A stretch of DNA of 20,101 nt from an uncultured bacterium (GTDB taxonomy: Bacteria; CAIJMQ01), in assembly GCA_964573245.1 (NCBI GenBank), contig CAZNJA010000022.1:1-20101 (forward strand), read 5' to 3'. The notes under the pieces were generated by a model. That model was not told the origin of the DNA. It did not search any database and was given only the letters and a program-made list of their open reading frames with translations. The position numbers and the translations under genes are program-made. Shown here one piece after another: positions 10,345 to 12,432 of this stretch. The number at the start of each line of letters is the position of its first letter. The stretch's first letter is position 1.

Positions 10345-12432
10345 ATGGACATTTCAAGCGCGAAAAAACAAATAGAGCAACTAAAGAAAGAAATCCAGCG
10401 TCATAACAGGCTCTATTATGTTGAAAATGCGCCTAAGATTTCCGATACGGAATATGACAAGCTCCTTAGGGAATTAAAAGAATTAGAAGATAAATTCCCG
10501 CAATTAAAAACCCCCGATTCTCCAACTCAAAGAGTCGGCGCACCTCCCCAGGAAAAGTTCAAAACCGTAAAACATGTCAAACCAATCCTCAGCTTAGACG
10601 GAACAACAAAAGAGGAGGAAGTGGAAAGGTTCGATAAAAGAGTTCGCGAGGGGCTTAACGAACCTGCCTCGCCTTCGTCTCATCCCGCTTCGCCCGCGAA
10701 GCGAGGCGAGCAAGGCGGGGATAAAGTTCAATATGTCGCCGAGCCGAAATTTGATGGGGTTTCTGTAGAGCTCATATATAAAAACGGCATTTTAACCAGA
10801 GGCGCCACACGAGGCGACGGAACAAACGGCGAAGATGTAACGGCAAATATAAAAACAATAAAGACGATTCCTTTGCGGCTGATTGATAGCAACATTCCTT
10901 TGAAAGTATCAATCCGCGGGGAAGCAATGATGACTCTTGAAGATTTCCAGGCACTTAATAAAAGGTTGACGGAAATGGATAAACAGGCATTCGCAAATCC
11001 GAGAAATGCCGCAGCCGGTTCTGTAAGACAACTTGATTCCAAAATAACCGCAGAAAGAAATCTCACCTTTTTCGCATACGAAATAATGCATGTGGAAGGT
11101 AAAAAATTAAATACTCATATGGAAGAAATAGAAACGCTCAAGGATTGGGGATTTAAAATAGACCCGCACCTCAAGTTATGTAAAAACATTCAGGAGGCAA
11201 TCGAGTTTCATCACAAATTAGAAAGAAAAAGAGACAATCTGCCGTTTGAAACAGACGGCGTTGTCATAAAAGTAGACAATCTCTTATCACATGAAAAGCT
11301 CGGTACAAGGACACGCTCGCCAAAGTGGGCTGTTGCATATAAATTTGAACCAAGAAAAGAAATCACGGAAGTTCAGGATATTGTTGTGCAAGTGGGAAGG
11401 ACGGGGAAACTTACTCCCGTGGCATTGCTTAGGCCCGTTGATTTAAGCGGAGTAACCGTAAGCAGAGCAACGCTTCATAATGAAGGTGAAGTAAAAAAGA
11501 AAGATATACGGATCGGAGATAAAGTAAGGATAGAACGCGCTGGCGATGTTATACCGGCGGTTGTCGAAAGAATTCCCGCCACTACTACTTTGGCGGGCAA
11601 GCCCGAAAAAGGGGGAAAACGAAGTAAACCTTTCAGTATGCCTGCAAGGTGCCCTGTTTGCAGCTCGGAAGTCTTTCAGGAGGGTGCATACCACTTCTGC
11701 AGTGGTGGAACATCCTGCCCCACACAACTTAAAAGAGCCATTCAGCACCTTGCATCAAAAGGTGCTTTTGACATAGAAGGGCTCGGCGAAAAAATAGTCG
11801 ATGTTCTCGCAGAAAAAGGCATGGTCAAAGACATTTCCGACATATTCAAACTGACCAAAGACAATTTTCTGCCGCTTGAAAGATTTGCCGAAAAATCCGC
11901 TCAAAATATGGCAGATGCTTTAGAAGATGCTAAAAATATCAGTTTAAACAGATTTATTTACGCGCTCGGTATACCCAATGTAGGGGAGCATTTGGCACAA
12001 GTTCTGGCAAAAGAATTTAAAAATCTCGAAAATCTTATGAATGCAAACGTTGATGTGCTAAAATCCATTTTTGAAGTTGGGCCCAAAGTTGCAGAAAGTA
12101 TAGTGGTTTTTTTCGGTAATGGAAAAAACAGAAATGTAATATCCAAGTTTTTTGATTTTGGCGTCCACATTCAGGAAACTGAGAAAGAAGAAAAAAAAGA
12201 ACTGCCTCTTAAAGAAAAAACAATAGTTTTCACAGGCGAACTGGAATCGTTTACGCGAAGCGAAGCAAAAAAGACAGCAGAAGATTTAGGCGCAAGAGTT
12301 ACATCAAGCGTTAGCAGTAGCACCGATTATGTAGTAGTCGGGAACAATCCCGGTTCAAAGGCTGATGATGCAAAGAAACTGGGAATAACAATTTTATATG
12401 AAGAGGGATTCAGGAAGATGATGGGGAAATGA
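10345..12432 (+). CDS. ligA: NAD-dependent DNA ligase
   Basis: ISDTEYD, EPKFDG adenylation motif, [27 protein letters not shown], zinc finger, C-terminal BRCT; ATG at 10345 preferred as start. Confidence 0.97.
10663..10719. repeat. Nested palindromic element in ligA (57 bp, 19 aa [19 protein letters not shown])
   Basis: 30-bp unit matching 9736-9765 at 28 of 30 positions, with a 27-bp hairpin (10685-10711) inserted. Confidence 0.85.
11575..11601 (+). repeat. 27-bp palindromic element in ligA (PATTTLAGK)
   Basis: CCCGCCA-N9-TGGCGGG-CAAG; same architecture as 15043-15069. Confidence 0.8.

Follow-up and report, generated by a model that had tools for sequence, protein, structure and literature searches.

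How does a stretch of DNA too short to code for anything of its own come to lie, in frame, inside the gene of an essential repair enzyme, and how does it come to hold a second such stretch within itself? The question is raised by two neighboring genes, ogg and ligA, in a window of 20,101 nt from an uncultured bacterium (the source genome, G000), which carry copies of one 30-nt unit, intact in ogg and split by 27 further nucleotides in ligA. An earlier note had read the two copies as an internal pair of an empty and a filled site, left by sequential insertion at the level of DNA. Our reading is that the 57-bp insert in ligA and the 30-bp unit in ogg are probably copies of one family of tiny, GC-rich, imperfectly palindromic, non-coding mobile elements. 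The parts involved are:

10663..10719, forward strand: the ligA insert, 57 nt (19 amino acids), in frame between a GAA and a GAT codon
10663..10684, forward strand: left arm and loop of the 30-nt host unit in ligA
10685..10711, forward strand: inner 27-nt palindromic unit in ligA, CCGCTTCGCC..GCGAAGCG plus AGGCGAGC
10712..10719, forward strand: right arm of the 30-nt host unit in ligA, AAGGCGGG
9736..9765, forward strand: the 30-nt unit without the expansion, antisense to ogg, reading CCTGCCTCGCCTTTGTCTCATCAAGGCAGG

The shared unit matches at 28 of 30 positions between ogg (9736-9765) and ligA (10663-10684 plus 10712-10719), with letters and coordinates as the note had given them, and its translation from opposite strands in the two genes is likewise as described. 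A repeat search of the window independently recovered a 23-nt core at 96% identity, and the 22-mer, at up to 3 mismatches, has two matches in the window versus 0 in 100 dinucleotide shuffles. The left 22 nt of the ligA insert are identical at 21 positions to ogg 9736-9757, and likewise to C3:11030-11051 on another contig; they are followed by the 27 extra nucleotides and by AAGGCGGG, which again differs from ogg by one change. The boundary of the inner unit can move by 1 nt, since positions 10684 and 10711 are both C. The right arm, found in most family members, forms one T-G wobble when paired with CCTGCCT. The 30-mer in ligA has no enclosing hairpin, and the 27-nt palindrome lies just 5' of its right arm. 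Folded as DNA, the 57-mer reaches -16.2 kcal/mol, which is modest against shuffles (z -1.9).

Alignment of LigA orthologues ahead of the KxDG motif, with gaps between genomes read by BLAST gap parsing, confirmed that three relatives have an empty ligA site: the insert has no counterpart in the LigA genes of G001 and G002, which belong to the same genus, or of G004, from a sister genus of the same family, and its boundaries are codon-exact. Among wider relatives, 14 of the 15 aligned LigA sequences lack an insert at this site; in E. coli LigA (structure 2owo) the insert aligns to a gap that separates residues 103 and 104. The KxDG lysine follows 11 residues after the insert, which lies in a predicted disordered loop (residues 113-125 of the LigA model are coil, with pLDDT < 50). 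A second GC-rich stretch of ligA (about 11400-11700) proved, on inspection, not to be another insert specific to G000.

In ogg the same unit is embedded in a larger structure:

9707..9814, forward strand: composite element of 108 nt (36 amino acids), in frame, with inverted repeats CCCCGTTARAAG.. and ..CTTCTAACGRGG
9725..9773, forward strand: hairpin TCTCGAC..GTTGGGA, whose loop is TTTA, the 30-mer and T
9780..9796, forward strand: second inner hairpin of the composite, TCCGACGTTACGTCGGA

The nest thus has three levels, from the gene to the 108-nt inverted-repeat element, to the loop of its hairpin, to the 30-mer. The note's reading as sequential insertion is supported, with the provisos that ogg and ligA are paralogous rather than orthologous sites, and that the ogg unit is itself the third level of a composite. 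Sister hairpins of 9725-9773 have loops of 4-6 nt, mostly 5 (for example TCCCGAC TTTAT GTCGGGA at 7835-7853), and within this TCCCGAC hairpin family a 35-nt loop holding the 30-mer is seen in the ogg and C3 copies only. The composite folds into an outer stem with two hairpins, and does so better than any of 200 shuffles (z -4.5), compared with z -2.6 to -3.1 for the 30-mer alone. The TCCGACGTTACGTCGGA palindrome has 22 matches in the genome with 1 mismatch allowed, some in tRNA genes and others within other elements; the C3 composite carries a different hairpin in its place. The ogg site is empty in G004 and is occupied in G001 and G002 by a different, shorter element of the same inverted-repeat family, and foreign contigs cease to match at 9709/9710. 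Two other identities were tried for this element and dropped: attC sites, because the core-site polarity is reversed (as read from the sequence against the attC consensus), and a hammerhead-like fold for its three-way junction, after Rfam 15 covariance models matched nothing anywhere in the window with E values as high as 1 allowed.

The inverted-repeat family has two further members in the window, both in a gene resembling FNR:

7562..7594, reverse strand: minimal 33-nt member, in frame in the FNR-like gene, read as TPFRDLSLTG, lacking in the G001 orthologue
7820..7951, reverse strand: 132-nt member in the same gene, in frame, holding the unexpanded hairpin 7835-7853, also lacking in the G001 orthologue

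The outer ogg element (CCCCGTTAGA..TCTAACGGGG) has terminal inverted repeats of 12-16 nt, comes in discrete size classes, numbers 57 strict copies in G000, and often has imperfect direct repeats of 6 nt on its flanks. Together, the loci in the window form a stepwise series, from a plain hairpin, to a hairpin with a 30-mer in its loop, to a 30-mer with a 27-mer in its loop, and this series shows composite repeats being assembled piece by piece.

The units are not confined to the window. The family pattern CCTGCCTCGC..CAAGGCRGG, run on four genomes of the genus, found 21 distinct loci with 0 control matches, and none in G004. Twenty of these loci are 27-33 nt long (one also fits a 47-nt reading), and only the ligA copy measures 57 nt. 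The arms are CCTGCCTCGCC..(C)AAGGCRGG in units of 27-33 nt, which start with CCTGCC or CCCGCC and end with GGCGGG or GGCAGG. A wider regular expression, CCYGC..GCRGG, has 88 matches in G000, in units of 21-33 nt with conserved wobble and mismatch positions. This expression and genome comparison were used in place of a scan for perfect-stem hairpins, which returned 92 islands (18 in the shuffle) and missed the imperfect family members. Five proteins read the 30-nt unit as PASP..QGG. Stand-alone members in open reading frames without a G001 counterpart lie at C23:12452, C5:22448, C14:10711 and C20:20047, and lineage-specific copies are many in both G000 and G001. A full-text search for the repeat strings returned chance primer matches only, within the literature searched.

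How did the 27-mer come to lie within the 30-mer? Its exact second copy, at C5:18254-18280, sits inside a different host hairpin, and both copies are within insertions specific to G000. The loops of CCCCACACC hairpins hold a 27-mer. With as many as 3 mismatches allowed, the inner 27-mer of ligA had no match in G001-G004 or G018; it is also present in G010. We slightly favor the 27-mer having entered the 30-mer as a separate event. Unexpanded counterparts exist for both of its hosts, of 30 nt (ogg, C3 and G001:C11:270675) and of 21-22 nt (C2:6053, C80 and C21), and in each host the 27 additional nucleotides start at a clean junction immediately ahead of the right arm. Relatives of the 27-mer with the same GAGGCGAGC end are found on their own, as a 33-nt copy in an open reading frame at C85:1930 that is absent from G001, and inside other hairpins (C13 and C24). 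At C24:4185, a related 24-nt unit is missing from the G001 orthologue with 14+14 identical flanking nucleotides, giving an orthologous pair of an empty and a filled site.

These observations have to be weighed against a second account, in which the ligA 57-mer is a recombinant between a copy of the 30-mer type and one of the C5 type, joined through their shared arms by gene conversion or template switching, so that the 27 nt would not have moved as one piece. From the same left junction, ligA and C5 are identical over 36 nt through the right arm (27-mer, right arm and G), and their left parts differ (13 nt versus 5 nt). The 27-mer has only two copies in G000, both with the same right arm, and the pattern would look no different had one insertion been followed by exchange between family members. 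Inside, the family members appear modular, their basal stems being conserved and their tops variable; the different element subtypes at the ogg site in G000 and in G001/G002 suggest replacement; and G001 carries a filled paralogue of the C24 nest, so that the empty and filled pair there could reflect conversion. No ligA allele with the 30-mer only was seen in relatives or in contigs of four runs, nor was any joint skipping the insert or its 27-mer in those contigs, which drop rare variants; because the 30-mer-only allele is unseen, the order of events in ligA is one that we infer. Even so, the clean junctions, the unexpanded hosts and the independent occurrence of GAGGCGAGC-ending units argue against recombination, which we consider possible but rather unlikely.

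The reading as mobile units rests more broadly on a genome-wide comparison. Over 1.01 Mb aligned between G000 and G001, we counted indels of at least 15 nt without N. Among the 755 found, 172 are GC-rich, and 133 of those lie in stop-free frames of at least 100 codons (the label for an open frame used here, which is not a gene call). Within these long frames 115 of the 133 GC-rich indels (86%) are multiples of three, compared with 15 of 39 (38%) outside them. For 53 clean GC-rich events the ambiguity of the boundary is 0 nt in 36 and 1 nt in 12; these 48 of 53 events argue that no target is duplicated. No conserved target motif was found at the 53 sites. Flanking identity of at least 50% of amino acids on both sides was retained in 28 of 39 clean in-frame events, and 11 failed this test. 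Orientation showed a weak trend at most relative to local GC skew, itself a noisy measure (15/8/11/18 in G001, 4/4/3/10 in G000).

Might the stem-loops instead be kept for a role in RNA, as regulatory or stabilizing structures, or as segments excised from the mRNA or skipped in it? REPs of other genomes are believed to work at the level of transcripts, as described in PMC3733652; the arms here pair via T-G wobbles on one strand; and 18 of the 133 GC-rich indels in long frames have lengths not divisible by three. The predominance of multiples of three is, however, what translation predicts, and the inserts favor neither orientation with respect to the coding strand (counts of 32 and 25, with 16 ties). 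A corresponding pattern of wobbles and mismatches is present on the complementary strand, so that the wobble singles out no RNA strand, and the empty Rfam result also speaks against such a role, which we regard as very improbable. Less credible still is a single local duplication, or growth of a palindrome in place by slippage or fold-back synthesis, between neighbor genes and with no mobile family at all. The ogg and ligA copies are only 927 nt apart, and part of the 27-mer is complementary to the left arm of its host (GGCGAG to CTCGCC). Yet the genome search found both units on other contigs, with the 30-mer matched at C3:11030 (27/30) and the 27-mer repeated exactly at C5:18254, so that the note's own proviso, that neither unit might recur, falls away; the 21 loci in four genomes and the many lineage-specific copies, including one 33-mer identical in three G001 genes, point the same way. 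Finally, an artefact of assembly or binning is practically out of the question for the ligA insert. The genome is a 110-contig metagenome assembly with N stretches near repeats, but contigs assembled independently from runs X2, X3 and X5 span the insert with zero differences and the ligA reading frame is intact.

The preferred reading, then, is one of mobile hairpins. The units appear at new places in genomes of the genus without target-site duplication, and the inserts end at the feet of the hairpin. They sit in either orientation to the host gene, and their landing sites include both coding DNA and the loops of other hairpins, where nests are built. To judge from the translated frames, copies tend to stay in frame and would be read as short loops rich in Pro, Ala, Ser, Gly and Arg. 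They are selfish, RPE/REP-like hairpins, for which a transposase was not found. In the mechanism that we envisage, a single-stranded hairpin would be copied into single-stranded DNA, such as loops and replication forks, and selection would weed out insertions that disrupt the reading frame or essential structure; such selection would account for the predominance, in open frames, of lengths divisible by three, and for the position of the ligA insert in a disordered surface loop.

As to the copying itself, we tentatively suggest that a trans-acting enzyme of the HUH/Y1 type, of the RAYT/TIRYT kind, might be responsible. No intact mobilizing enzyme was found in G000 or G001, whose assemblies are 92-93% complete: the only Y1-like domain of G000 lacks the HUH histidines and lies inside a 436-aa membrane protein, and G001 has no Y1_Tnp match. 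A reverse transcriptase domain (RVT_1) was found in none of G000-G004. A TnpA of the IS200 type adjoins TnpB in G003, the only genome in which this pair was seen, and HUH and YxxNP motifs occur in G002 proteins 229-326 aa long. In G002 and G018 the Y1 genes have inverted repeats of their own on either side, different from these units, and no Y1/RAYT gene flanked by the units was found among G000-G003 and G018; because these assemblies are incomplete, the absence of a cognate Y1 gene is not proven.

It is conceivable, if somewhat doubtful, that these units form a class of mobile hairpins of 21-33 nt not described before, which spreads without a dedicated RAYT and without target duplication, prefers single-stranded loops by the 3' arm of other hairpins and AT-rich coding DNA, builds multi-level nests, and has remodeled about a hundred proteins per genome. 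Within that possibility, the 27-mer in G010 and the outer inverted repeat in G018, G010 and G015, across deep taxonomic boundaries, would point to shared mobilizing machinery or to a host route of replication or repair. Two species of one genus that differ by about 130 in-frame GC-rich insertions offer a tractable case in which to ask how elements of non-coding size move and how much novelty in protein loops they make. The latter question has so far been asked mainly in Rickettsia; here the organism is free-living, and essential repair enzymes (LigA and Ogg) are among the targets. Such inserts also inflate protein lengths, and can mislead the annotation and alignment of metagenome-assembled genomes.

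Several known systems resemble these units in part. Rickettsia palindromic elements (RPEs) are palindromic repeats that lie in frame in many unrelated housekeeping genes, where they are translated and tolerated at permissive places, as described in PMC10969869 and PMC3733652. Frame-keeping insertion with an empty orthologue is likewise seen here for ligA, ogg and the FNR-like gene, and genome-wide in the 115 of 133 indels. The likeness is one of description: the first-described RPE families are about 100-150 bp long and come from an obligate intracellular alphaproteobacterium, whereas the units here are 21-57 nt, form nests of as many as three levels, and come from a salt-marsh lineage that is free-living. 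REPs, in the accounts of PMC3733652 and PMC6006769, are imperfect GC-rich palindromes of 20-40 nt with many copies and several families per genome, sometimes inside open reading frames without a frame break, often in DNA repair genes, and known to lie inside other small palindromes; the foot of the hairpin is tagged by a GTAG or CGTC tetranucleotide (PMC3733652, PMC6006769). Like the repeats of the REP/REPIN-RAYT system, the units here are imperfect palindromes of about 20-40 nt, dispersed in many copies. They differ in having no GTAG or CGTC tag at the foot or at clean insert boundaries, in that no cognate Y1 gene flanked by them was found in these incomplete assemblies, and in their location, for REPs are mainly extragenic and 133 of 172 GC-rich lineage-specific indels here lie in open frames.

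A likeness to MITEs is limited to the outer ogg element, which has terminal inverted repeats; the arms of the 30- and 57-mers are simply the hairpin. Target duplication is absent in the small hairpins, and the outer family has its imperfect 6-nt direct repeats; no parent insertion sequence was found for either. Palindromes derived from IS200/IS605 have hairpin ends, no target duplication, and a fixed target of 4-5 nt beside the insertion; of these, the first two were observed here, and a fixed flanking motif was not seen at the 53 clean sites. The small dispersed repeats (SDRs) of cyanobacteria are said by Elhai et al. (2008) to be hairpin units of 21-27 nt, perhaps the smallest mobile elements, some nested in their own copies; they are reportedly confined to a cyanobacterial subgroup, with movement through RNA proposed. 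Hairpin units of 21-27 nt nested in related units are found here as well, a likeness of description, and the two differ in that no reverse transcriptase was found in the five genomes and in that massive in-frame coding insertion is the main feature here. In fungal mitochondria, GC clusters, double-hairpin elements and 'byp' elements are likewise short and GC-rich, hairpins that have invaded coding genes rich in AT. All of these are organellar, and ribosomes skip the byp elements, whereas the bias of insert lengths toward multiples of three here points to plain translation rather than ribosomal skipping.

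An earlier note had read two copies of a GC-rich hairpin unit, one in ogg and one in ligA, as an empty and a filled site produced by sequential insertion at the DNA level. We confirmed the sequences letter by letter: once 27 nt are removed from ligA, its unit matches the ogg 30-mer at 28/30 positions. The presence and length of the 27-nt insertion stood, while its boundary is not unique and slides by 1 base. The core of the unit was also recovered independently by a repeat search of the window, where the 22-mer (up to 3 mismatches) has 2 matches, versus 0 in 100 shuffles.

Features in the window (plus-strand coordinates)
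7148-8059, minus strand: FNR-like oxidoreductase gene with two in-frame CCCCGTTAGAG inverted-repeat members
7562-7594: first CCCCGTTAGAG-family member (33 nt), absent from the same-genus genome G001
7820-7951: second CCCCGTTAGAG-family member (132 nt), also absent from G001
7835-7853: unexpanded hairpin TCCCGAC TTTAT GTCGGGA, inside another outer element
9449-10201, minus strand: ogg (Pfam Ogg-HhH, E 1e-57)
9707-9814: outer inverted-repeat element in ogg (108 nt), ends CCCCGTTARAAG.. and ..CTTCTAACGRGG
9736-9765: 30-mer CCTGCCTCGCCTTTGTCTCATCAAGGCAGG in ogg, from the window sequence
10345-12432, plus strand: ligA, with the full set of NAD-ligase domains
10663-10684: first 22 nt of the unit in ligA, 1 change from the ogg copy
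10685-10711: 27 extra nt in ligA
10712-10719: right end of the unit in ligA, AAGGCGGG

LigA genes are present in 39 of the 41 genomes searched, including the genome under study (G000). Upstream of the KxDG motif, where the earlier note had suggested aligning orthologues, ligA of two same-genus relatives (G001, G002) and of a sister genus in the same family (G004) has exactly 57 nt fewer; the gap lies between GAA and GAT codons, with both flanks conserved. Aligning 16 LigA sequences showed no insert at this site in 14 of 15 relatives; in one distant genome, this loop holds an insert of 9 unrelated residues. The 19 extra residues fall between residues 103 and 104 of E. coli LigA (2owo), with the adenylated KxDG lysine following 11 residues later. 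In an AlphaFold2 model covering residues 1-345 (mean pLDDT 87), the insert is predicted as coil, preceded by helix 90-103 and followed by strand 130-136, with pLDDT <50 at 113-125 and >90 around it. Contigs from three other runs span the insert with 0 differences, and therefore it is not an assembly artefact: the 57-nt stretch is a real insertion.

Both units recur elsewhere in G000 (1.456 Mb, 110 contigs, 38.4% GC), the outcome expected of a mobile family: C3:11030 carries a third 30-mer (27/30), and the 27-mer has a second, exact copy at C5:18254. The pattern CCTGCCTCGC..CAAGGCRGG identified 21 distinct loci (9 in G000, 2 in G001, 8 in G002 and 2 in G003, also of the genus), with 0 matches in G004 and 0 for a reversed-pattern control. 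Twenty of the 21 are 27-33 nt long (one also fits a longer 47-nt reading), and the ligA copy is the sole 57-nt member. Stand-alone G000 members at C23:12452, C5:22448, C14:10711 and C20:20047 lie in long open frames and are missing from G001; in five proteins the unit is translated as PASP..QGG. At C5 the host of the 27-mer is another hairpin, CCTGCCTCG-ACGGT-[27]-AAGGCGGGG, with unexpanded 21-22-nt counterparts elsewhere. GAGGCGAGC-tailed units occur both singly, as in the 33-nt copy at C85:1930 that is missing from G001, and within GGTCGCC hairpins on C13 and C24. The identity between ligA and C5 starts at base 10685 and runs for 36 nt; together with the modular interiors, this agrees with the 57-mer being a recombinant, formed by exchange between 30-mer-type and C5-type copies via shared arms, an origin that we consider possible and rather unlikely.

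Nesting extends to ogg, where the 30-mer is one part only of the 108-nt outer element. The fold of this element (z -4.5) has an outer stem and two hairpins, the first of which belongs to a TCCCGAY-loop-RTYGGGA family with a usual loop of 4-6 nt, mostly 5. The loop in both ogg and C3 consists of TTTA, the 30-mer and T, in that order; the 30-mer is thus inserted cleanly into the loop, with exactly the boundaries proposed earlier for ogg. Unexpanded, 30-mer-filled and 27-mer-expanded forms are all present, and therefore the window holds a three-step series: the hairpin at 7835-7853, hairpin plus 30-mer in ogg, and 30-mer plus 27-mer in ligA. A comparable nest occurs at C24:4185, where a 24-nt unit in a GGTCGCC hairpin loop is absent from the G001 orthologue (flanks 14+14 identical); a filled paralogue is present elsewhere in G001.

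The outer elements are themselves a family, with 57 strict copies in G000; the 10-mer core of their ends, at 87 copies, is its commonest GC-rich 10-mer. The ogg site is empty in G004, and in G001 and G002 it holds a shorter element of another subtype and interior (AGAGAT type, ~72 nt; L022, L023), versus the AGAAGT type in G000, reflecting either repeated hot-spot insertion or whole-element replacement. Elsewhere in its ogg (L023), G002 has another in-frame nested hairpin of 48 nt, CCCTGAACC-GTCCGCCA..TGGCGGAC-TGGTTCAGGG, absent from G000, G001 and G004. Outer-element insertions in G000 and G001 comprise the element plus ~6 nt, flanked by imperfect direct repeats of GTnAAn type (e.g. GTCAAC/GTCAAA, GTAAAC/GTGAAG), which may reflect imprecise duplication of the target or a preference for targets similar to the element's own end. 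Distant genomes contain the same 14-nt terminal repeat, ACCCCGTTAGARAT, with similar flanks; there it borders AT-rich elements of ~70-270 nt (L120-L131; 22 matches in G018, 2 each in G010 and G015). G010 also has three copies of the 27-mer CCTGCCCGCC..GGCAGGCGGG, and together these matches suggest horizontal spread or, in the case of the 59%-complete G010, mis-binning.

Other repeats were noted in the window and elsewhere in G000. The ogg-ligA spacer (10252-10330) contains two ~36-nt units of CATTGCGAG..GCAATCTC type in inverted orientation; the contig depth of these units sums to 1654-6367 in four salt-marsh runs, versus ~5 in the flanking sequence, and numerous distinct loose contig ends begin at 10252/10286/10295/10330. 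This looks like a repeat common to many community organisms. An inverted repeat 3' of ligA (12447-12526, GATACTAGATGCTGGATAC..) is probably another intergenic family; strings like 'ctagtatc / cagtatctagaatc' border hairpin insertions on other contigs. At C14:12678-12756 of G000, a 79-nt hairpin composite interrupts the D-loop region of a tRNA-like 5' half, GGGCGATTAGCTCAGT..GGTTAGAGCAC, with repeated partial tRNA copies and N stretches following at C14:12815-13600; nearby, ARAGORN called only Cys, Leu and Val tRNAs.

Aligning the whole of G001 to G000 (303 kept segments, 1.01 Mb, ~75-80% identity) gave 760 indels of at least 15 nt, or 755 after removing 5 containing N. Among GC-rich indels (at least 50% GC), 115 of 133 (86%) within open frames are multiples of three, versus 15 of 39 (38%) outside, an open frame being a stop-free stretch of at least 100 codons and a label rather than a gene call; the AT-rich counts are 130/180 and 153/403. 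Indel lengths within open frames peak at 24, 27 and 33 nt (17, 15 and 23 events). Lineage-specific copies occur in both genomes (G000 72, G001 63, counted before the N filter), and three G001 genes share an identical 33-mer. Boundary ambiguity is none in 36 and one base in 12 of 53 clean GC-rich events, so the target is not duplicated and what is inserted is just the hairpin. New sites gain copies. Loops of other hairpins serve as targets, mostly immediately next to the 3' arm. Inserted units pass a strong in-frame filter; in 28 of 39 clean in-frame events both 24-codon flanks retain at least 50% amino-acid identity, and those failing are mostly adjacent to other indels.

That the hairpins act at the RNA level is disfavoured by this multiple-of-three rule and by the lack of strand preference, units lying both ways relative to the host gene (32 and 25, with 16 ties). 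The copies present on other contigs contradict a local duplication as the source of the ogg/ligA similarity. We regard the finding as real and sequential insertion as essentially the right account of the pair, since both units recur and the ligA site is empty in relatives.

The units may travel as single-stranded hairpins via a putative trans-acting HUH/Y1 enzyme, with selection retaining only those harmless copies that would preserve frame. Unit orientation shows only a weak trend with GC skew. The sole Y1-like domain in G000 lacks HUH; its 436-aa protein (C12:23859-25169, L028), kept in G003, combines an N-terminal Y1-transposase-like domain without the HUH histidines with a membrane segment and, at its C-terminus, a domain common to the adjoining 202-aa protein. 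We found no Y1 domain in G001 and no reverse transcriptase in G000-G004. G003 encodes an IS200-type TnpA adjoining TnpB, and G002 encodes RAYT/TIRYT-like proteins bordered by their own, different inverted repeats.

The ogg/ligA pair leads to a population of tiny nested hairpin elements that spans the genus and decorates many proteins. Membership among REPs is not supported: the units lack a GTAG or CGTC tag, most copies do not lie outside genes, and a flanked RAYT was not found. A literal search with four repeat strings gave no relevant match in the article texts covered, and supplements could list similar repeats. In behaviour, the units are closest to Rickettsia palindromic elements, intragenic REPs and cyanobacterial small dispersed repeats. 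The last of these, reportedly described by Elhai in 2008, are said to include nested copies. The behaviour of Rickettsia palindromic elements, as described in PMC10969869, resembles that of the units here. Two further papers describe intragenic REPs as often lying in repair genes and also within other palindromes (Di Nocera et al. 2013, PMC3733652), and as keeping frame within genes (Quentin et al. 2018, PMC6006769).
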